From a virus (lineage: Duplodnaviria; Heunggongvirae; Uroviricota; Caudoviricetes), in the IMG/VR virus record IMGVR_UViG_2585427789_000026: 10,458 nucleotides of DNA; one strand, 5' to 3'. Position numbers and translations under genes: made by a program. Under the pieces are notes generated by a model that ran no database searches, had not been told where the DNA came from, and worked only from the letters and a program-made list of their open reading frames with translations. Positions within the stretch are counted from its first letter, which is position 1. Each line of letters starts with the position of its first letter. Positions 1-10,458 of this stretch are shown piece by piece.

Positions 1-1167
1 TCAGGCCTTATGGTGGAAATAATCACTCAGGCGAGAAAACATGCTGCCTTCCCCGACAGATTCCAGGGTAACCAGCGGCCAGTGCGCCACCTGTTTATCA
101 CGGTCGTAAAGTTCAATTTCCCCTACCCGCTGATGGGCGCTAATTGGCGCGGTGAGCTCTTTACCATTAAGGGTATATTTGGCTTTGATATGTGGAATTT
201 CGGCTTTCGGTAGCACCATCCAGAACTCTTGTTCCGTTCCCAGGGCGATATTTTCTTTATCACCATACCAGATGCGTTCCGTACCGACCTTTTTCCTACG
301 GTGCAAAATTTGCACCGTAGTAAAGTTTTGTTGCCCCCAACGCAGTAATTTTTTTGCCTCTTCCTCACGACCTTTTGCGCTGTCAGCACCCATTACCACT
401 GCAATGAGGCGACGCTGCCCGTCTACAGCCGAAGCAATAAGATTAAACCCGGCACCAGAAGTATGGCCCGTTTTCAGGCCGTCAACATTCATGGTCTTAT
501 CCCACAATAACCCGTTACGGTTTTGCTGGGTGATACCGTTCCAGGTGAGGCTTTTCTCACTGTACATATGATAAAACTCGGGCTCGCCGTGGATGATAGC
601 GCGAGAAAGCACGGCTAAATCATAAGCCGAGCTATGCTGGCCAGGTGCATCCAGACCATGCACTGTTTCAAAATGCGTATCCTTGAGATGCAGCTTCTCG
701 GCATAGTTGTTCATCATTTCAACAAACTGCCGTTGCCCACCGGCAATATAGTCAGCCAGAGCAACACACGCGTCATTTCCGGAATCCACAATTAAACCTC
801 GGCTTAAATCACGTACCGATACGCGATCGCCCTCTTTCAAAAACATCAGTGAAGAACCGACAAACACCGGATTATCTTTCGCCCACGCATCACGCCCCAC
901 GGTGACAATATCGTCTGGCGTAATGCGATGACTATCGATAGCGCGATCCACGACATAGCCCGTCATCAGCTTTGTCAGGCTGGCGGGATTGCGCTGTTGA
1001 TGCTCATTACCCGCGGTGAGAATCTGACCGGTGGTGTAATCCATCAATACCCAGGACCCGGCATGAATCTCTGGAGGCTGAGGTGAAAAAGGAATGTTTT
1101 CCGCCGCAAAACCAGACGATAAATTAAAAACGAACAAAGAAGCAGCAATAATAAGACGGCGTTTCAA
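1..1167 (-). CDS. dacD: D-alanyl-D-alanine carboxypeptidase DacD (penicillin-binding protein 6b)
   Basis: Complement ORF with stop at 1-3; translation carries the serine-PBP motifs SLTK (SxxK), SGN and KTG and matches E. coli DacD as recalled. The ORF track extends to a TTG at 1171-1173; the recalled 388-aa protein (MKRRLIIAAS...) starts at the TTG at 1165-1167. Confidence 0.92.
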   Translation of the reverse strand: MKRRLIIAASLFVFNLSSGFAAENIPFSPQPPEIHAGSWVLMDYTTGQILTAGNEHQQRNPASLTKLMTGYVVDRAIDSHRITPDDIVTVGRDAWAKDNPVFVGSSLMFLKEGDRVSVRDLSRGLIVDSGNDACVALADYIAGGQRQFVEMMNNYAEKLHLKDTHFETVHGLDAPGQHSSAYDLAVLSRAIIHGEPEFYHMYSEKSLTWNGITQQNRNGLLWDKTMNVDGLKTGHTSGAGFNLIASAVDGQRRLIAVVMGADSAKGREEEAKKLLRWGQQNFTTVQILHRRKKVGTERIWYGDKENIALGTEQEFWMVLPKAEIPHIKAKYTLNGKELTAPISAHQRVGEIELYDRDKQVAHWPLVTLESVGEGSMFSRLSDYFHHKA

Positions 1168-1375
1168 CAGCAAACCCTCAGGTGTTTCAAATAGCTGTTC
1201 TTTTTACGGAAATACTTATGAACTGGCTGGAATAAAGTGCAAGAAAATGTGACTACTACCTCATTTTTATCTGACATGATCTGTTGCCACTCGCTGCCAA
1301 ATTGTCGCGCTAAAGCTGATTAGCACGGTGATATTTGATACTCTGGCAGACAGCAGAAATAACGGATTTAACCTA

Positions 1376-1502: not shown

Positions 1503-1907
1503 CACAATTTTCACTTCAGCGGGTAGTCATCAAACTCACCATAACGAGCATCGTTGATGATGTATGTGATCACCACAAATATCACATCTGGACTAGTTCC
1601 GTCTTCATGCGCAGGTATCTGTTCACGCCTCCCTTTCTGCAAATCCTAAAGATGAGATTTTGGGGTTTTGGGATATCTTTTTATCCTCAGTTCTCTATCC
1701 ATTCTACAAAGCAGTAATGAACCATCACCGTGTGATAGTGAGGCATCCGCTACGTTAAGCGCAGAGAAATGATGCAGTGGTGGTCGGACTGGATTGATGA
1801 AAAGGTGTAGCAACCAACATTGCTATATCTCAGATAGCACAAAGCCTTGCAATCCAGTGCAAAGCTTTGTGTGTCTCAGTTTTGTCTCATAGGTAACTCT
1901 GTGTTAA

Positions 1908-2195: not shown

Positions 2196-4781
2196 CTACT
2201 CTATCTCTTTTGCTTTTTTAATTATCAATTCAAGCTCTGTTAAACGAGACTCAATGCGTTCACACCTTCTTCGCTGGAATGCAGCCTCCAACCACAAACA
2301 TTCATCTGGACGCAATCCCCAACGCTCACCAGCATGTACAACCAGTTCCGTGTCACCAGTATCGTATTCTTCAAAGTATTCGTGAACGATGTCTTCTCCT
2401 TCAGGGGATTTAGCTATAAATGACACCTTGCGCTGTGCCATTACAGGTTGGTACTCATCATCCCATTTATCATGACATAGCAAGCCAAATCTTGTTCCAT
2501 CTATCCCCTTTGCAAGAAACGCATCTCTTACCTGCTGTGCAATTGCTCCGAAATGCCAACGAGCAGTATCCGAACCTTTAGCCTTAATATCGGACAACCA
2601 CTGGTAAACGATAATATTTACGTCACCCCATGCGTCAAGAATTGCATCCTGATCCACCTCCATGATTTCTGAAAGTTGCTCTACTGTCAGTGGCTTTGTT
2701 TTCAATGTCTGGTCTGAAGTATTTATTGCCCCATTAGTTGCATATACTTGCGTCCACCGTTTAGATGATGTCCCACATGATGACGTATTATCTTTATTAG
2801 CACTTATATAGCCATTAACCTCCGCTGACTGACCGATATACGAATATGAAGATGTTGATAAGGGAGATTTAAATATCCATTGAGCATTGGTAAAGTCATA
2901 AATACCGGTATCACCTTTTTCACTAACATGAAAAGTTACATTCCGTAACGTATTCTTTGCATCATAACGGGCGGCTTGTGTTGTTGCCCTCGAAACAGTG
3001 AATCCTTTGTCATCAAGGTTTGCCTGCTCTATGACTTCACCACCAGGCATAATTTTACCAAGGCTTAACAAACCAGAGTTAGTGACAATATCATGGGTTG
3101 AATCAATGATAATACCAGGCTGATTTCTTGATGTTGTTTTTACATGCATTACCTGTTGTGGCATTAATGTGTAAAATGTAGTTTCTCGCCCACTATCACC
3201 ATCTGGTATGCCATTTGTATTCCCCATTACAAGGTCATACCCACCTGCAATCATACGGAAAAACATTGCTTCTGGTTCATATGTAAGATTGCTAACATCT
3301 GGCGTTCCGGTATCATTTGGATCTGCTATTTCATAGGCTCTTCCTGCACCTGCCTGTATTTGCTGCACCCCAAGATAAACACCATCAAGTGTGTACTGAT
3401 GCAAATATTTTCTGGTTGAAGAATATGCAGATCCAGCCTGACAAAAATAAATAGCAGTACCGTCACACGCAACTGTTTGCATATCCCTCACAAAATCGGC
3501 AATTTCAAATTCAAAAGTTGCTTCATTACGATAATCGTAATTGTACGCCTGCGGGTTAATAAATTTGCTGGTATCAAATACTTTTACATAATAGCGAATT
3601 TGATCTGGTGTTGATGGGCTCTCACCAGGGCCAACATAACGTTTTGCTGTAGTAATCAGCCATCGACTCATAGGGTCGGTGCATAAAACATTTACCTGAT
3701 TCTCGTAACCATCTTCCCATATGAGAAAAAACTCTGGTTCAATTTCACCACCATCAGTAGGGGTGAATCTGGTGATATACTTTGCGCGATCCTCTCCTTT
3801 AGCTGTGCCAGCTAACCCCCATATCTGTAACTGGCCTCTTGTGTTACGAAAACCAACGCGCCCTATGGTTAAACCAAGACATTGATGTCCTAATTCTCTA
3901 CTACCTTTAGTCTCCCAAAGAGGAGTTAACTCTTCATTCCCAAACCAATTATAAGCAACAACTTTATTAACTTCGTCACCAGAACTAACGCTGCCACTCA
4001 CATTTACCAAGCAATAAAGAACACTGTCATAATAATCAAGAACAGCACCCTGTATGACAGTATTTTTAATTGTTGCCAGTCGCAACCCTGACTTAACATG
4101 ATTAGGAGTAGAAGGTCTGAAACCTGTATACATCCCCTTTTTTATAGTTTGTATTCTTTTTTCAGTAAAATCAGCATCTGGCAGTAATCGATTCTCTGTG
4201 CGAAAATAGCCATTTATATACTTATTTCCATCAAAAACTTGATCTGTTATATATGTATTACCCCTTAGATCAACAATCCTTCCTGTGATTTGTTTTTCTA
4301 ACTCTTGAAAAGATAATGTGTCATCGGTGATGCCATCACCTTTTGCTCCCCATCCGCGAGGGTCAGCGTCATCACGCCACCGAGACATCTGCAATTCATG
4401 ATATTTTTTAGCACCTTCCGGGTCTTCTAATTGTTGTCTTAATTGGTCAGGATCGTACTTAAGCACATTCGGAAAATAGAACTGCTGCGTACCATATGCA
4501 TCGTAAACAGCCATAGAATGGCCTTGCACGGTAACGAATTTGGAAATCTGTCCGTTGTATACCGGGTATCCAGCAGCATTGATAACGATTGGCTGTGGCA
4601 CCTGAACATAAGTACCATCTTCTCGTTCCAGATATACTGGAATCTGGTTTTCTGGATTTACCGGATCTGTGTCAATCTTACCGATATAAATTTTTCCATT
4701 TGCTACGGTTTTAAAAGAGCTAGCCATTGTGAAGAGTTGCGATGGCATCCCAATTACAACATTTGGGGTTATATCAGGCAT
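2196..4781 (-). CDS. Phage tailspike: P22-type N-terminal head-binding domain, pectate-lyase-like beta-helix central domain, C-terminal intramolecular chaperone (peptidase S74-like) domain
   Basis: N-terminus [17 protein letters not shown]...[27 protein letters not shown]...[15 protein letters not shown]...NVLKYDPDQ aligns closely with the P22 gp9 / HK620 head-binding domain as recalled. Central [12 protein letters not shown] motif is typical of pectate-lyase-superfamily depolymerases. C-terminal ~173 aa begins SDQTLK (Ser codon 2715-2717), fitting the S-x4-K self-cleavage signature of tail-fibre chaperone domains. Start chosen at ATG 4779-4781 (AGGA 8 nt upstream); the ORF-track start at 4874 has no ribosome-binding site. 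Confidence 0.85.
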
Positions 4782-5197
4782 ATTAGTCATCCTGTTTGAA
4801 GATTTAGATATTGAAGAAAACGGAATGACTGCAGACAAAGATGCAATTGTTTTGAAAAATAACCTTCTATTCATTTAAAAACCATGCAACATGAACAAAA
4901 CGATTATTTTACAATACTCAAGAATCTTGATCAACAGGCATATTATTTATGCGCTTAATGCGTCACTTACAAAAATAAAAACAAGTAATACCTTTATTCC
5001 TATCGTCCATGATTTTTATTTTCAAACATTATTAAATAACAATTCCTATTTATAATATCTGTCATTTAATTTGCTCCAGATACAAGGAATCGCCGCAGCA
5101 TGGCTACGGTGAGCATTTGTTACATACCGAAACGGTACGATTGTTGATTTGTACAGTAGGTTTTACGATGCCATTCCACCCATTTGGTGAGGCATTG

Positions 5198-5455
5198 ATG
5201 ATGTACAGCAAATACGATGAGGCGCAGTTCCACTTGAGGCTTACGCACGAGTTGCACGCTAAGATTAAGCAGCGTGCAAAAATGAATAACAGGTCTATCA
5301 ATTCCGAAATTGTGGCTACGATGGAAGAATCACTCTCCAAACCATCACCTGTAAGCGGGTATCGTGATGAAGAAGAGAGGCTGGACTCATTAATCTCGGA
5401 ACGAGTAAAAGAAGTTGCGGCTGATATCCTTAGAAAAGAAAAAACCCGCGATTAA
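5198..5455 (+). CDS. mnt: Mnt-like ribbon-helix-helix repressor
   Basis: Translation MMYSKYDEAQFHLRLTHELHAKIKQRAKMNNRSINSEIVATMEESLSKPSPVSGYRDEEERL... aligns along its length with P22 Mnt as recalled (…FNFRMP…GRSMNSE…SKPSPVTGYRNDAERL…). GGTGAGG lies 5 nt upstream of the ATG at 5198; a second ATG follows at 5201. Confidence 0.8.
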   Translation: MMYSKYDEAQFHLRLTHELHAKIKQRAKMNNRSINSEIVATMEESLSKPSPVSGYRDEEERLDSLISERVKEVAADILRKEKTRD

Positions 5456-5463
5456 GCGGGTTT
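5442..5463. terminator. Bidirectional intrinsic terminator between convergent mnt and the antirepressor operon
   Basis: Perfect 8-bp stem aaacccgc / gcgggttt with 6-nt loop gattaa, flanked by an A-run upstream (a U-tract for the minus-strand transcript) and ttt on the plus strand. It overlaps the mnt stop codon and lies 7 bp from the stop of the 73-aa ORF. Confidence 0.55.
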
Positions 5464-5469
5464 AGTTGG

Positions 5470-5691
5470 TTAGTTATCAAAAAGTCCGTACGTTTCTTCT
5501 TCTTCAGGTGTAAGGGGAAGAATCTCTACTCTATCTATAGATACCTTTTCAATGTACCCATGAGGCCTACTTAAAATTAAAGCTCTCTCATGCCACAGAA
5601 CTCCAAGAATGTGATACCTTCCAGCATCGCCTTTTACCCTGGCTCTTCCTTTGATTCTTGGCGGCATAATGCCATATTTTTTCTTTGCCAT
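5470..5691 (-). CDS. Hypothetical 73-aa protein (basic N-terminus, acidic C-terminus), translationally coupled to the upstream antirepressor
   Basis: Its ATG (5689-5691) overlaps the TAA stop of the upstream gene (5691-5693) as TAATG; it ends just before the bidirectional terminator. No family recognised. Confidence 0.5.
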   Translation of the reverse strand: MAKKKYGIMPPRIKGRARVKGDAGRYHILGVLWHERALILSRPHGYIEKVSIDRVEILPLTPEEEETYGLFDN

Positions 5692-6416
5692 TATGCAACA
5701 TTACTCCCATGAATAAGGTGTTGTAGTGCTTTAACACCTTCCTCATTGTAGCGGAACGCTTCCACCTGTTTGCTGGAATGCGCAGATTTATCCAGGAAGA
5801 ACTTCCCGTACTGCTCAGTTTTGAGGTTGTTTGCGTTAGCAATGCGACCAATCTTGTTGGCCGTTACTCCAAGCTGCTCTGCAACCTCCCCTGCTGAGTA
5901 GTAATGCTCTTCTATTGCCGGAAGAGGTATTGCATTAAAACCAACGAGCGGGTTGATTATACTTGCTGCCGCTGTCTGCTTTGCCTCCGGCGCAAGATTT
6001 GGCATCAGATCGAACAGATTGGTAACAGCTTCAACCGTCATTTTCAATGTTCGCGCTTGACGATACTCAACAAGTCCACTCGCTGATTTACCGCTTTTAA
6101 TGTGCGCTTCCTGCATACTTTCAAGTTTGTCTACAAGTGTTCGGCGAACTGCTTTAGATTCGCGAGCAGCAACACGAAGCGCCTGCTTGATAGTCATGGA
6201 GATAACATCAATGTCAGCCCCGTTTTTCCGACCTACACTTTTTGTGTAGGTCTCGCCTTCCAATTCATCCTCAATTTTCTCGATGAATTTGTTGTTACGT
6301 ACTGATGGCTCTCCACATAACTTGCGAGCTTCATTAACCATCATCAGAAGACTTTGGCTGTCAATGGTTTTATCCGTGACAACGGATCCGATGTTTGCTA
6401 CATTCTTAAAAGTCAT
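5691..6416 (-). CDS. Phage antirepressor / regulatory protein, Rha-like N-terminus with KilA-C (ANT) C-terminal domain
   Basis: C-terminal YYSAGEVAEQLGVTANKIGRIANANNLKTEQYGKFF...FRYNEEGVKAL fits the KilA-C antirepressor domain pattern; N-terminal ...DSQSLLMMVNEARKL...VRNNKFIEKIE resembles Rha/ORF6N. Start chosen at ATG 6414-6416 (MTFKN..., AAGGA about 7 nt upstream) rather than the ORF-track TTG at 6503. Confidence 0.65.
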   Translation of the reverse strand: MTFKNVANIGSVVTDKTIDSQSLLMMVNEARKLCGEPSVRNNKFIEKIEDELEGETYTKSVGRKNGADIDVISMTIKQALRVAARESKAVRRTLVDKLESMQEAHIKSGKSASGLVEYRQARTLKMTVEAVTNLFDLMPNLAPEAKQTAAASIINPLVGFNAIPLPAIEEHYYSAGEVAEQLGVTANKIGRIANANNLKTEQYGKFFLDKSAHSSKQVEAFRYNEEGVKALQHLIHGSNVA

Positions 6417-6485
6417 TAGGCATTCCTTATGTGGTAGTAAGGGTGTGACATAGGCCGCCAGCAGCACACTGGCGGTTTTCTTTTG
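6411..6485 (+). ncRNA. Putative sar-like antisense RNA covering the start codon and ribosome-binding site of the Rha/KilA-C antirepressor
   Basis: Candidate promoter GTGACA (6376-6381), 17-bp spacer, TACATT (6399-6404) would start transcription near 6411 and end at the terminator above, about 70 nt. The geometry mirrors the P22 sar antisense RNA in the arc-ant region. Confidence 0.35.
6454..6485 (+). terminator. Plus-strand intrinsic terminator in the intercistronic region between the two antirepressor genes
   Basis: Stem ccgccag (6455-6461) / ctggcgg (6469-6475), 7-nt loop, followed on the plus strand by ttttcttttg (6476-6485). The minus-strand side has no U-tract. Confidence 0.55.
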
Positions 6486-6503
6486 CGCAGTCCGGCGCAC
6501 CAA

Positions 6504-7142
6504 TCAATGAATCCATTCCTCGCCGCGAAGTTTTGCCAGCATTGGCTGAGCGTTCTTTACGACAAAATTGTTGGTATCAAGATTCTTCATTTCACGAAGA
6601 AGTGATTTCTTGGTTTCTTCTGACATGTAGCGAGTCTCATATGCAATATCGTAAATCCTTCCTGAAAGCTCAGAACCAATTTGCTTCATTCCTGGGTAGA
6701 TGTGTTTGCACATTTGTTGACTCTTCTCCATCCACAATTGTAAGTAGCAGAGATTAACCAGCTCTTCGTCAGTGAACTGTTTTGCAATCGGTGAGCATTC
6801 TGCCTGCCGATCCAAAATATCCAGCACCCAGCGGCGGAACTCTTTGGCCTTGGGCGTAGAAGCAAACATCGCCACCAAGTGAGCGCCTCGGAGTGAGTAA
6901 ACTCTGACCGATTTGTTACGTAAGCTATTGTTTATTCCGTTGACCTTCATATTGAGGGTCAATGACATTGAGTCGGAAAATTCGTCAGCATTACGGGCAT
7001 AAATTTGGCTGATGGCATCAGTTTTTTTATAGCCGAGAGCCTTAGCTAGTTCGGTGGAGGTAAACCAGATAGACCCGCCCTCTGTTACAGGGTTAAAAGT
7101 GAATCCTTGGAAGTTATAATCTGATTTTGCTACAATATTCAT
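6504..7142 (-). CDS. Phage antirepressor with Bro-N / AntA-type N-terminal domain
   Basis: N-terminal ...FQGFTFNPVTEGGSIWFTSTELAKALGY...VYSLRGAHLVAMFASTPKAKEFRRWVLDILD matches the Bro-N / antirepressor N-domain pattern. Start chosen at ATG 7140-7142 (MNIVAKSDYNFQ, AAGGAAA 6 nt upstream), downstream of the arc stop; the ORF-track start at 7247 overlaps arc. Confidence 0.65.
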   Translation of the reverse strand: MNIVAKSDYNFQGFTFNPVTEGGSIWFTSTELAKALGYKKTDAISQIYARNADEFSDSMSLTLNMKVNGINNSLRNKSVRVYSLRGAHLVAMFASTPKAKEFRRWVLDILDRQAECSPIAKQFTDEELVNLCYLQLWMEKSQQMCKHIYPGMKQIGSELSGRIYDIAYETRYMSEETKKSLLREMKNLDTNNFVVKNAQPMLAKLRGEEWIH

Positions 7143-7220
7143 GTTAGTTTCCTTGAGTACGGTTACTGACATAGAGGCCCGGTTTGTGTTCGCGCACTGC
7201 CGGGCTTCACTATTTTTATT
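7143..7220 (+). ncRNA. Putative second sar-like antisense RNA covering the ribosome-binding site of the Bro-N antirepressor
   Basis: Candidate promoter TTGGAA (7107-7112), 18-bp spacer, TACAAT (7131-7136) would start transcription at about 7143, beside the Bro-N start codon, and run about 70 nt to the hairpin and T-tract at 7174-7220. Same geometry as the 6411-6485 unit. Confidence 0.3.
7174..7220 (+). terminator. Plus-strand terminator-like hairpin with T-rich tail at the arc 3' end, upstream of the Bro-N gene
   Basis: GC stem gcccgg (7177-7182) / ccgggc (7200-7205) with extension, followed on the plus strand by ttcactatttttatt. The minus-strand side has no U-tract. Confidence 0.4.
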
Positions 7221-7389
7221 GGATGACAACATCGCCCTTTGCCTCAAGTTTCATTAATAACTCCATTCGATAAGCTATCTCTGCCTGAATTGACCTATGG
7301 CATCTTTTTGCTGATTCGCGGATATGTGAATCAACCTTTTCTGTAAAACGAACCTGACGCGGCTTGATGGAAGATATCTTTTCAGTCAT
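7216..7389 (-). CDS. arc: Arc-like ribbon-helix-helix repressor (57 aa; not in the supplied ORF track)
   Basis: Hand translation of the complement strand: MTEKISSIKPRQVRFTEKVDSHIRESAKRCHRSIQAEIAYRMELLMKLEAKGDVVIQ-stop. It aligns with P22 Arc as recalled (…PQFNLRWPREVLDLVRKVAEENGRSVNSEIYQRVMESF…). AGGAG lies 6 nt upstream of the ATG at 7387-7389. Confidence 0.7.
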   Translation of the reverse strand: MTEKISSIKPRQVRFTEKVDSHIRESAKRCHRSIQAEIAYRMELLMKLEAKGDVVIQ

Positions 7390-7435
7390 TATGCACTCCT
7401 GTTTTTGAAAAACTCATAATCTCACTTTTTGTAGT

Positions 7436-7467
7436 TTGATTATTCACTCACACTCAGTATGAGTCAA
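7436..7467. promoter_or_regulatory. Overlapping divergent promoters with candidate operator (palindrome ACTCA-gta-TGAGT plus ACTCA repeats) between arc and the CI-like gene
   Basis: Minus strand: TTGACT (complement of 7462-7467), 17 bp, AATAAT (complement of 7439-7444), reading into arc. Plus strand: TTGATT (7436-7441), about 16 bp, TATGAG, a weaker promoter reading into the CI-like gene. The 13-bp palindrome at 7452-7464 overlaps both; further ACTCA half-sites at 7412 and 7445. Confidence 0.4.
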
Positions 7468-7488
7468 TGAATTTTTTATGGTGAACTA

Positions 7489-8130
7489 ATGAATTTTGAC
7501 GATCAATTCCCATCAAGAGTATCTCTGGCAAGACAGTCCAGGGGTATGACGCAGGCGCAGTTGTCAAAATTAGCTGGTGTTGTTCAACGTCAAATAGCTG
7601 CATACGAGGGTGGTGAGGCTAAACCACGGCTTCGGGTATTGCAGGCATTAGCCAACGCATTAGGTACTACGGCTGAGTGGTTAGCTCTAGGTGAAGGTCA
7701 GGGTCCGGGAACAAAAAACGTCATGCCTGACGTTCTGGTAAAGCAAATACCAATTCTCAAACTAGATGAAGTTATGCATTACCTAAACACAGGTGAACAT
7801 TCATCGTCTAGATTTCATCCTGCAATATACAATGTTGGTGACTCTGCATTTGCATTGACTATTGAAGGTGAAGCTATGACTACAAGTTCAGGTATTAGCT
7901 TTCCCAGAGGATCGGTTGTCACGTTCAGCCCTCTAGTAAAAGCTAAAAGCAAAGATTATGTAATAGCATCATTGGATAAAGAGCAAATATTGAGCTTCAA
8001 ACAGGTTTACATTGGTGAAATAGAGACAAACCTAGTATCCCTAAACCCAATGTATCCTAATATTCTTGTTAGAAATGAAGATGTTAGTATTTTGGCAACC
8101 GCAGTTTACCTTGAAATCCCGTTGCTTTGA
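7489..8130 (+). CDS. CI-like repressor (XRE-type HTH plus LexA/S24-like C-terminal domain) with catalytic Ser and cleavage site replaced
   Basis: N-terminal HTH (…GMTQAQLSKLAGVVQRQIAAYEGG…); C-terminal GDSAFALTIEGEAM…SFPRG…LSFKQV…LNPMYP aligns with lambda CI GDSAFWLEVEGNSM…SFPDG…FTFKKL…LNPQYP. The G-x-S-M nucleophile position reads Ala (GCT 7873-7875) and the Ala-Gly scissile position reads Asp-Glu. Confidence 0.8.
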   Translation: MNFDDQFPSRVSLARQSRGMTQAQLSKLAGVVQRQIAAYEGGEAKPRLRVLQALANALGTTAEWLALGEGQGPGTKNVMPDVLVKQIPILKLDEVMHYLNTGEHSSSRFHPAIYNVGDSAFALTIEGEAMTTSSGISFPRGSVVTFSPLVKAKSKDYVIASLDKEQILSFKQVYIGEIETNLVSLNPMYPNILVRNEDVSILATAVYLEIPLL

Positions 8131-8190
8131 TATCCTTTAGGAGGCGACACATTATCATCTGGTATCCTGCTCAAAACTAAGGAGGTTGGT

Positions 8191-8379
8191 GTGAAGAAAA
8201 AATTTGTAAACGTTGCAAAGTGCGCAATTTTTATATTTTTTATGACCTTTTACGGATTTAGTGCCGGAGAAGGTTTCGATCGTGATGCCAATGCATTCAG
8301 TTTCTTTTGTCTGTCTATAGTGGTCATAATTGTATGGGTGGAATTAAAGCAAACATTGTTTCATGTGCTAAGGAAATAA
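8191..8379 (+). CDS. Hypothetical small membrane protein (62 aa) downstream of the CI-like repressor
   Basis: GTG start 5 nt after a strong TAAGGAGG (8178-8185). Lys-rich N-terminus followed by two hydrophobic segments. Same strand as the CI-like gene, 60 bp downstream. Confidence 0.5.
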   Translation: MKKKFVNVAKCAIFIFFMTFYGFSAGEGFDRDANAFSFFCLSIVVIIVWVELKQTLFHVLRK

Positions 8380-8396
8380 CCATCCATGGCATTTAG

Positions 8397-8931
8397 TCAC
8401 TGCTGTGTTGCCTCAGTGGCAAGCAGCGGTCTGATGGCATTTGCAGCGTTACTTAATGCTCTTTCATAGGCTGGCGTTCCTGCTTTGGTGTTTGCCAGAC
8501 GTAAGAGCGCATTCCTGGCCATAGGGCTTTCATAAACCCTCGACATAAGGCCAATCCCTGTTTCCCCAGCCAATAGCGCGCCTCCGGTTTTTAGGTTACC
8601 AATAACCCTTACCAAAGGCGCGAGTGTCATGCCAGTCTTCGTCACAACATTAGCCTCAGATGCTCTTTTGGTAGCATCGAGAATAGATAACATCCCCTCT
8701 ATCTCTTTTCCGTTCTTCCCACCAAATACAGTTTTAAACACCTGACCATTTGCTTGTTTTTGCAGCTTGCCAAGCTCGGTCATCATTTTCTGAGGGCTGT
8801 CACCTACCTTGTCAGCTATTTTGCTGATATATGCCGCCCTTAGCATGTCTTTACCTTTTTGATCGAGTTTCCCGTACAATCGAGCTATATCTGACCCATA
8901 TTGTCCATACACAATGGTATTTACAGCCTCG
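8397..8931 (-). pseudogene. 3' fragment of a phage late gene (putative DNA-ejection / internal virion protein, gp16-like by position), truncated by IS66 insertion
   Basis: The reading frame stays open upstream of the listed GTG (8912) straight into the IS66 end, with no convincing ribosome-binding site. The protein is low-complexity and Ala/Gly/Lys-rich. The gp16 assignment rests only on position relative to P22 gene order. Confidence 0.4.
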
Positions 8932-10458
8932 GTAAGCGGCTCGCCAGAACCGTATTGATATTTACTGAGAGGTCAGATCAACTTTCCAGGGCAACAGATC
9001 GCGTACCCGGTTTGCCGGCCAATCCTGGATATGCTCAATGACGTAACGCAGCCATTTTTCTGGTTCCACATTGTTCAGACGGCATGTGCCGATCAGCGAG
9101 TACAACACCGCCGCATGTTCGCCACCGCTGTCGGAACCCGCGAACAGCCAGTTTTTCCGGCCTACGGCCACTCCCCGTAAGGCGTTCTCTGCGATGTTGT
9201 TGTCGATTTCCACCCAGCCATTACTGCAGTACACGTTCAGGCCATCCCACTGTTTCAGCAGGTATGCGAACGCTTTTGCCGTATCCGAGTGACGCGACAG
9301 TGTTTTCATCTGAGTCTGTATCCAGTCATACAGTGACTGCATCAGTGGCGCGGCTCTGGCTTTTCTTGCCGCCAGACGCTGTTCTGCTGAACATCCCCGG
9401 ACTTCTGCCTCGATGGCATACAGTTCACCGATACGCTGCAGGGCTTCCGTGGTGATGTCGGTGGGCACTCTTGCATGCACATCGTGGATTTTTCTCCGGG
9501 CATGAGCCATACACGCGGCTTCCGTTATTCTGCCGGATTCGTATAACACCCGGTAACCACCGTAAGCATCGGCCTGAAGCACACCGCTGTAACCGGCCAG
9601 ATGATTTTGTGGATGGATACCTTTCCGGTCCGGTGAGTACGCGAACCAGACCGCCGGGGGCATTTCCGAACCGGCGTTACGGTCATCACGGACGTAGACC
9701 CACAGCCGGGCGGTCCGGGTTTTACCGCTGCCCGGCTCCTGGACCGGGACGGGGATATCATCAGCATGGACTTTACCGGGCATCAGCACATACTGGCGCA
9801 GGACGTCATACAGCGGCTCCAGCAGTTCAGCAACGGCACCTGTCCAGCGCCCCAGCGTGGCGCGGCTCAGCTCCACGCCCTGGCGACGGTATATTTCTGA
9901 CTGGCGGTATAACGGCAGATGGTCTGCATATTTCCCGGTAACAACATGGGCCAGAAGCCCCGCTCCGGCATAACTGCGTGCAATGGGTTTTGAAGGTACT
10001 GTTGCCTGCACGATATGGTCGCACCGACAACAGGCCAGTTTCGGACGTTGTGTTTCGATAACCTTAAAGGCGCTGCTGATAAGCTCCAGTTGCTCTGACA
10101 CATCACACCCCAGAGGACTGAGGTCACCACCACAGGCCGGGCAGCATTCCTCTTCCGGCCGGATGACCCGGGTTTCACGGGGAAGTGAGGCCGGTAACGG
10201 TTTACGGGCTGAAGACTGGCGCAGGGCGGATGGCAGTACCGGGTCATATTGCTCACCCAGCGTTTCCGCCATTTCTTCCTGAAGTGCGCTGATTCGCTCC
10301 TGTGCTTCCTGTATCTGCCGTTCGGTTTTAGCGCGAAGTTTTTCTGAGCTTTTACCGAACTGCATGCGCTGCAGTTTCGCAACCAGCGCCTTCAGCCGGT
10401 TGATTTCGGAAGCATAAGCCGCCACCCGCTGTGAGAGCAGGCGGTTGTATTTCGCCAT
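8932..10458 (-). mobile_element. IS66-family insertion sequence, right end, continuing beyond the window
   Basis: GC-rich block beginning GTAAGCGGC at 8932, consistent with the GTAA terminus typical of IS66-family inverted repeats as recalled, 30 bp from the transposase stop. Sharp composition change from the AT-rich phage sequence. Confidence 0.75.
8962..10458 (-). CDS. tnpC: IS66-family transposase (TnpC/orf3), N-terminally truncated by the window edge
   Basis: 498-aa ORF ending ...[11 protein letters not shown], with leucine-zipper-like N-region, CxxC...CxC zinc motif (CPACGG...CCRCDH) and a conserved catalytic core. The M at 10458 corresponds to an internal position in full-length IS66 TnpC as recalled, so the true start lies outside the window. 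Confidence 0.9.

Follow-up and report, generated by a model that had tools for sequence, protein, structure and literature searches.

We analysed a stretch of 10,458 nt from a tailed-phage record (Caudoviricetes; IMGVR_UViG_2585427789_000026), called the window below, in which a gene for a CI-like repressor (7489–8130) stands divergent from an operon encoding a small, predicted ribbon-helix-helix (RHH) protein and two antirepressors. The CI-like protein belongs to this antirepressor cassette and is not the master switch of the prophage. The explanation that we favour, and consider probable, is that it acts as the maintenance repressor (the 'guard') of a self-contained, horizontally mobile antirepressor cassette, as an analogue of the P22 repressor Mnt that is blind to the SOS response. 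The gene and the positions in it that matter for self-cleavage are:

7489–8130, plus strand: CI/434-like repressor of 213 aa with an S24-fold C-terminal domain lacking the nucleophile; identical to RefSeq WP_001008290.1
7771–7776, plus strand: Val95-Met96 (GTT ATG), under the scissile Ala111-Gly112 of lambda CI in the MAFFT and hhalign alignments
7873–7875, plus strand: Ala129 (GCT, in GEAM), under Ser149 of lambda CI (GNSM) in the phmmer, MAFFT and hhalign alignments
7999–8001, plus strand: Lys171 (AAA, in SFKQV), under Lys192 of lambda CI, the general base, which is kept

The protein has the two-domain architecture of lambda CI, P22 C2 and the 434 repressor. It exceeds the Pfam cut-offs for HTH_3 (48.4 bits) and for Peptidase_S24 (PF00717; 47.9 bits against a cut-off of 23.3, residues 108–206), and its N-terminal domain, a helix-turn-helix (HTH) of the Cro/C1 type, is closest to the 434 repressor (E 4e-6). 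In a phmmer search against the PDB residues 108–206 were aligned to the C-terminal domain of lambda CI (E 1e-7), with 'LTIEGEAMTT' under 'LEVEGNSMTA' and 'SFKQV' under 'TFKKL'; the same register was obtained when a family profile was aligned to lambda CI by hhalign (probability 99.6%, E 2.4e-24). An AlphaFold model built on the family alignment (mean pLDDT 86) had lambda repressor as its top Foldseek matches, the C-terminal domain being superimposed on 1f39 with a TM-score of 0.84 and an rmsd of 1.8 Å. An earlier reading made from the letters alone (the sequence-only reading) had described a lambda CI-type S24 domain with Ala for the nucleophilic Ser at codon 7873–7875 and with the general-base Lys retained; all three points stand, and the profile alignment confirms the register of the G-x-S-M motif.

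Self-cleavage of S24 repressors is determined by an Ala/Cys-Gly bond and a Ser-Lys dyad (PMC8565304). In the CI-like protein the nucleophilic Ser of the G-[DN]-S-M motif is absent, and so is the scissile Ala-Gly (or Cys-Gly) bond of the linker; two of the three elements are missing, and RecA-stimulated autocleavage is therefore very unlikely, as far as residues can tell. To the same degree the data bear out the claim of a repressor that RecA cannot cleave. Only half of the previous statement on the scissile position survives: the Ala-Gly bond is indeed lacking, but the assignment to Asp93-Glu94 was two residues off. The equivalent of the cleavage loop (residues 92–101) is predicted as a helix with pLDDT of about 90, a further difference from lambda CI, P22 C2 and the 434 repressor besides the Ala nucleophile and the Val-Met bond. 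Changes of the same kind, Ser to Ala in LexA S119A and lambda CI S149A and loss of the P1' Gly in LexA G85D (1jhh, 1jhf), abolish cleavage in the laboratory; those mutants were engineered, whereas the substitutions in the window are natural, selected and combined in one protein.

Comparison with relatives indicates that the loss of the protease site is genuine and stable, not decay. Against the close copy L027 (99.5% protein identity; labels such as L027 and P0002 denote members of the family) the gene shows 24 synonymous and one non-synonymous differences, giving a dN/dS of 0.011 that was computed for this pair only (dS against L004 and L006 is saturated); the C-terminal domain carries 12 synonymous and no non-synonymous changes. 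Ala is found at the nucleophile position in P0002, P0004 and L006 as well (91%, 76% and 72% identity), with intact ORFs and saturated synonymous sites. The same allele occurs in 26 IMG/VR viral contigs, and matches to the gene were detected in 110 of 5426 complete E. coli genomes (28 cover at least 80% of the query). Moreover, positions 4875–8400 of the window are 100% identical to JEP4 (MT740315), an isolated plaque-forming phage. A random inactivating lesion, in a gene turning into a pseudogene within a decaying defective prophage, has a very small probability in the face of this dN/dS value, the 12:0 ratio in the C-terminal domain, the retention of Ala at 72–91% identity, the presence of the allele in viral contigs and in JEP4, and a fold that AlphaFold predicts to be intact. 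What speaks for a lesion is the state of the prophage, whose gene-16 homologue is cut by an IS66 transposase, the loss of the head and immC genes from a related prophage in strain E100341, and the ease of the change: Ser to Ala takes one nucleotide, the 81% identical L004 having Ser encoded by TCT where the window has GCT. The sequence-only reading had also argued against a random lesion, and rightly so.

The position of the gene and the company it keeps define its role further. The CI-like gene lies between the homologues of genes 16 and 9 (tailspike), divergent from the RHH-antirepressor operon (5470–7389); it is neither at the immunity region nor paired with cro. The immC module of JEP4 (28014–29335) is complete, with C2, cro and c1; its C2 is canonical, with Ala-Gly (VSAG|C), GDSM and FKK. 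Prophage HS-1 of E. coli HS (now phiHS4) encodes the identical WP_001008290.1, which is the RefSeq protein at this gene in both E100341 and E. coli HS, together with a separate immC module that likewise comprises cro, c1 and the same kind of canonical C2, and phiHS4 is inducible with mitomycin C (bioRxiv 10.64898/2026.05.19.726188). Since a genuine, canonical C2 is co-resident in JEP4 and phiHS4, the CI-like protein is a second repressor and not the master repressor of lysogeny; lambda CI, P22 C2 and the 434 repressor differ from it in this respect too. The cassette persists without immC in defective remnants, among them the window and the prophage of E100341.

It had been proposed earlier that the protein is an uncleavable lysogeny repressor inactivated only by the neighbouring antirepressors, so that induction must go through them. 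A full-length CI-like repressor with a dead protease beside two antirepressor genes would fit such an arrangement, which would be that of Gifsy or SPC32H, and non-cleavable repressors induced via antirepressors are well documented (PMC3121763). The canonical immC carried along with the identical protein in JEP4 and phiHS4, and the mitomycin C induction of the latter, largely refute this proposal, and the statement on induction is not supported. In addition, the gene travels into unrelated backbones with the ant operon, not with cro, cII or replication genes, and the ant promoter has no LexA box or other evident SOS input that could trigger the antirepressors. We regard a master repressor as improbable here.

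The cassette and the mnt homologue next to it comprise the following features:

7390–7488: control region of 99 bp (97–101 bp in most related loci) that separates the divergent RHH and CI-like genes
7216–7389, minus strand: predicted 57-aa RHH protein (Arc analogue), first gene of the ant operon; phrog_10182
6504–7142, minus strand: antirepressor 1 (ant1), with Bro-N and P22AR_C domains; phrog_245 'anti-repressor Ant', E 4e-50
5691–6416, minus strand: antirepressor 2 (ant2); phrog_1726 'anti-repressor', E 2e-102; no Pfam match
5470–5691, minus strand: orf73 (phrog_4977), final gene of the ant operon
5442–5463, minus strand: terminator-like hairpin with a T-run, closing the ant operon; it overlaps the stop codon of mnt
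5198–5455, plus strand: mnt homologue (Arc-family RHH; Pfam Arc, 54.6 bits), labelled mnt in JEP4

The comparison covered 89 related loci, which came from collections of viral, genomic and metagenomic sequences. The CI-like homologue is divergently paired with a 57-aa Arc-like RHH homologue in 86 of them, ∼99 bp apart, and most of these loci have one or two antirepressor homologues behind the RHH gene. In P22-like phages the pair occupies the 16–9 'ant moron'. It is flanked by tape-measure and minor-tail genes in the lambda-like L004, adjoins an integrase in Salmonella prophages (L007-9), has another kind of tailspike as its neighbour in L006 and, in L097, stands at one end of a prophage equipped with a Phage_CI_repr repressor of its own. 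Given such varied backbones, the pair must be seen as part of a mobile cassette. Its relatives occur in Salmonella, Klebsiella, Yersinia, Providencia, Morganella, Xenorhabdus and Tatumella.

In phage SPN3UB a homologue of ant1 (95.5% identical at the DNA level) is combined with a classical Mnt-like/Arc-like couple, and in Salmonella phage UPF_BP1 mnt occupies the very slot of the CI-like gene, upstream of the shared orf62 and gene 16. Both comparisons support a non-orthologous replacement by which the CI-like protein would have taken the place of Mnt. The slot in UPF_BP1 also confirms that the gene sits where mnt is expected, opposite an RHH-antirepressor operon, as had been said of the stretch before. 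We considered, and dropped, a description of JEP4 as the 'mnt + orf62' region of phage L with an inserted cassette: orf62 of the window had no tblastn match in phage L or ST64T, and UPF_BP1 is the better comparison for this region. The moron of HS-1 was noted to have antirepressor genes and apparently no arc, and thus to control ant in a manner that must differ from P22 (Villafane et al. 2008, PMC2629481).

The 57-aa protein is classed as an RHH protein on the strength of profile comparisons. Its own match to Pfam Arc (E 0.011, 16.0 bits) is below the cut-off of 20.4 bits, and BLASTP gave no alignment of it with P22 Arc or with gp20 of SPN3UB. The profile of its family, on the other hand, matches the structures of Arc, AmrZ, Mnt and CopG with E 3e-4 to 2e-2 (3e-4 to 9e-3 for Arc), and 13 of the 21 members of the family match Pfam Arc at E ≤ 1, the best at 2.6e-5. 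To call the antirepressors 'Arc-controlled', as was done earlier, is weakly grounded, although the profile matches of the family lend it some weight.

On the strand opposite to the operon lie a conserved hairpin and a promoter-like site:

7174–7218, plus strand: hairpin with a T-run on the antisense strand of the ant operon, between the RHH gene and ant1 and directly 3' of the RHH stop
7093–7120, plus strand: promoter-like site TTAAAA-16-TATAAT within the 5' end of ant1, 10 of 12 matches

Of 50 distinct cassette sequences, 49 show the hairpin, and RNAalifold reports compensatory changes in 8 of its 10 pairs. Read in the plus orientation, the stem has many G-U pairs and few A-C mismatches, and for this reason the structure was assigned to RNA of the plus strand. 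The fold of 7127–7222 has a free energy of −35.8 kcal/mol (z = −4.7). The promoter-like site could drive an antisense RNA of ∼90 nt across the ant1 start codon, with the hairpin as its terminator. By analogy such an RNA would resemble sar of P22 in position and logic; an Rfam scan of 4700–8500 that included P22 sar returned nothing at E ≤ 1.

Indications that the CI-like protein may control this operon come from the 99-bp region between the divergent genes, where two features stand out:

7439–7467, minus strand: predicted ant-operon promoter, TTGACT (7467–7462), a 17-nt spacer and AATAAT (7444–7439)
7460–7467: candidate operator core TGAGTCAA, overlapping the −35 hexamer; part of it lies in a 13-bp palindrome, ACTCAgtaTGAGT (7452–7464)

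The predicted promoter matches 10 of 12 consensus positions, has the joint-best sigma-70-like score within 4780–8450 and faces the RHH-ant operon; no columns in the family's intergenic alignment are better conserved than its −35 and −10 hexamers. An inverted copy of the half-site, ACTCAT, is located at 7412–7417 and changes in parallel with the −35 site. Across the family the HTH region (GVVQRQIAAYEGGEAKPR) hardly varies, except at residue 33. Where residue 33 is Arg, the site reads TGTGTCAA in all nine distinct sequences with a scorable site, a count of distinct sequences that is not corrected for phylogeny; where it is Gln, His, Thr, Ala, Lys, Pro or Ser, the site is mostly TGAGTCAA, with TATGTCAA in one subgroup and other variants elsewhere. 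The contrast recurs within one close clade (L063/L069 versus L062/L066/L068). We take the covariation of an HTH residue with the site as evidence that the CI-like protein binds DNA at the −35 hexamer of the predicted ant promoter; binding at this place would in turn make it a functional analogue of Mnt.

Other candidates for control of this region were tried. The palindrome ACTCA-N3-TGAGT is not conserved as a dyad operator of fixed spacing; only a core of TG[A/T]GTCAA and the covariation are retained. The LexA box CTGT-N8-ACAG had no match in 7390–7488 with up to one mismatch, so that host LexA is not the guard. The P22-type Mnt operator, searched for as GGTCCAC-N-GTGGACC, had no match in the whole window with up to three mismatches.

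It could be argued that the ant promoter is really repressed by the 57-aa RHH protein, alone or together with Mnt, and that the CI-like protein does something else, e.g. activates its own transcription or that of orf62, or serves as a decoy that soaks up the antirepressors of competing phages. Arc of P22 strongly represses Pant on its own, the repeated CTCA motifs of the intergenic region could be RHH sites, and orf62 follows the CI-like gene directly in the same orientation. The covariation of the recognition-helix residue with the −35 site points to the CI-like protein at that position, however, and a shared divergent control region agrees with how strictly the two genes are paired and spaced. 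We therefore think it unlikely that the RHH protein is the real repressor.

In three loci (L061, L071 and L014) short inverted repeats flank the left ACTCAT half-site ∼66–68 bp upstream of the start of the CI-like gene. The repeats differ and stay complementary (CCGCA...TGCGG, CGCAT...ATGCG and CACA...TGTG), and could be the stem of a leader RNA or the site of the RHH protein.

Several observations sit less comfortably with the guard explanation, the phylogenetically uncorrected count at residue 33 being the first. The arms of the operator are 3 bp apart in the window and have other spacings in distant members. A promoter scan and inspection by eye revealed no convincing sigma-70 match for a promoter of the CI-like gene itself. 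The mnt homologue, 2 kb away, could also act on the cassette. Finally, 48 of the 76 distinct proteins of the family retain the Ser-Lys dyad and all but one lack the Ala-Gly bond, which would be odd if the domain only oligomerised; either the dyad has another purpose or cleavage in this family tolerates a P1' residue other than Gly.

In 28 of the 76 proteins Ser and/or Lys is absent. The listed states other than Ser-Lys, written as nucleophile and base, are Ala and Lys (nine, the state of the window), Ala and Arg (11), Ser and Arg (six), Ser and Met (two), Gly and Val (one) and Gly and Arg (one). The Ala-Gly bond is found in a single member, P0016, whose canonical set (Ala-Gly, Ser and Lys) occupies the same kind of cassette; long-form members read IPVLTHVQA followed by R, A, S, K or I where lambda CI has YPVFSHVQA followed by G. 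A neighbour-joining (NJ) tree suggests that Ser was lost in at least four separate places, a figure read off a crude tree, not from a tested reconstruction. From these patterns catalysis looks dispensable in the family and repeatedly lost, with the fold maintained. Responsiveness to SOS was probably the original state of the module, and the allele of the window would be an SOS-blind derivative. Members of 265–290 aa (P0012-P0021, L012-L079) have a C-terminal extension of ∼60 residues with the look of a coiled coil, which the protein of the window lacks.

The same patterns bear on the possibility that the repressor still responds to a signal by a non-canonical route: trans-cleavage by a co-resident S24 protein, degradation by Lon/ClpXP, sequestration by one of its own antirepressors or use of T131, T132, S133 or S134 as nucleophile are conceivable. 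UmuD-type intermolecular cleavage is established for the S24 fold, the active-site cleft is otherwise conserved, Lys171 included, and the majority of members that keep Ser-Lys without Ala-Gly hint at a non-canonical function of the dyad. Trans-cleavage would still need a cleavable bond, whereas the region here has Val-Met and is predicted as a helix instead of a strand and loop, and the repeated loss of Ser and Lys argues that catalysis is dispensable. A signal-responsive repressor is thus a minority option, somewhat better placed than repression by the RHH protein.

Under the guard explanation, the cassette would work as follows. The CI-like protein would do the job of Mnt in P22 immI, built on an HTH of CI/434 type and an S24-fold oligomerisation domain. 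As a dimer or higher oligomer held together by the latter, it would bind the TGAGTCAA-containing site that overlaps the −35 of the ant promoter (7467–7439) and keep the Arc-like RHH protein, antirepressor 1, antirepressor 2 and orf73 silent in the lysogen. Activated RecA (RecA*) would fail to stimulate self-cleavage and inactivate the guard because of the Ala nucleophile and the Val-Met bond, in vitro as well as in the cell, and DNA damage would leave the antirepressors unreleased; SOS induction of the host phage would run via the separate canonical C2. The antirepressors would be expressed mainly upon infection, before the guard accumulates, as with Ant of P22, and would then be shut down by the RHH protein and the probable antisense RNA.

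The likeness to the P22 immI region (mnt/arc/sar/ant) is considerable: the location between genes 16 and 9 is the same, a maintenance repressor is divergent from an operon in which a small, predicted RHH gene comes first and one or more antirepressor genes follow, ant1 has P22AR_C, and a conserved candidate terminator on the antisense strand lies where P22 has sar. The differences are as clear. The divergent repressor is an HTH and S24-fold protein in the cassette and the RHH tetramer Mnt in P22; the cassette has two antirepressors and an extra orf; its RHH protein has no BLASTP similarity to Arc, and no Rfam match to sar was found; the mnt homologue of the window is displaced to the tailspike side; and the cassette also occurs outside P22-like phages.

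Gifsy GfoA/GfhA, 186 Tum and N15 AntC (PMC3121763) similarly are antirepressor units away from the immunity region, often inside late or tail genes, with a guard of LexA fold. The guard of the cassette, unlike theirs, is phage-encoded and, in the allele of the window, predicted to be SOS-blind, and the control region has no LexA box. The Gifsy arrangement is also inverted, in that the host phage has a cleavable master repressor. CI-like repressors that cannot be cleaved are a known kind of element, and so are antirepressor modules. The literature that we searched gave no description of this combination and how far it has spread, nor of a graded loss of the S24 machinery.

By means of antirepressors one prophage can induce or override another, and this shapes both the competition among prophages and the release of phage-borne virulence genes. 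A cassette widespread in Enterobacterales would guard its antirepressors with a CI/LexA-like protein of its own instead of Mnt or host LexA; this would answer the 2008 remark that control of the 'ant moron' of E. coli HS-1 differs from P22. With S24 machinery lost repeatedly and the fold under purifying selection, the family is a natural pseudo-protease series. The scheme makes two predictions: Q33R combined with a change of TGAGTCAA to TGTGTCAA should swap specificity, and A129S with V95A/M96G should bring reversion. Annotation of the gene as 'repressor protein C2' or 'LexA family' is misleading, and its presence should not count as evidence of SOS inducibility.

A more speculative idea, which we put forward tentatively, is that the family forms a natural series: its guard, phage-borne and LexA-like, would switch the release of antirepressors between SOS-coupled and SOS-blind states. 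The canonical P0016 would stand at one end, the members with Ser-Lys and no Ala-Gly in the middle, and the dead members, which have Ala or Gly at the nucleophile or Arg, Met or Val at the base, at the other end; close relatives differ by single-nucleotide flips (TCT in L004, GCT in the window). Were this so, it would depend on a mobile module whether a prophage, upon DNA damage, takes its co-resident prophages with it into induction, and Ser-Lys dyads without a P1' Gly could reveal a new cleavage specificity or a trans-acting role of the S24 fold.

Beyond dacD of E. coli, the remainder of the window is one end of a defective P22-like (Lederbergvirus) prophage, with these further features:

1–1173, minus strand: dacD (E. 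coli)
2196–4781, minus strand: tailspike gene; the product has the P22 Head_binding domain and, C-terminally, an intramolecular chaperone domain (Peptidase_S74)
8191–8379, plus strand: orf62, a small hydrophobic ORF downstream of the CI-like gene; in UPF_BP1 it lies downstream of the mnt operon
8397–8912, minus strand: 3' part of the gene-16 (DNA transfer) homologue, of which the C-terminal 171 codons remain
8962–10458, minus strand: IS66-family transposase, 498 aa up to the window edge, which cuts the gene-16 homologue

This copy of the prophage is defective because the transposase truncates the gene-16 homologue. The mnt homologue is convergent with the ant operon; it has the end of the operon on one side and the tailspike gene on the other. 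Insertions differ elsewhere, with IS3 in ant2 of E. coli HS and IS3 in the ejection genes of E100341. The tailspike also has an N-terminal extension of endosialidase type, and its gene is followed by an ORF of 95 aa (1908–2195; phrog_1443). The equivalent of 1511–1762 (minus strand) in E100341 is annotated in RefSeq as a pseudogene of an S24-family peptidase, with an internal stop and the N-terminus missing; this second S24 remnant of the window, between dacD and the prophage end, is truly decayed.

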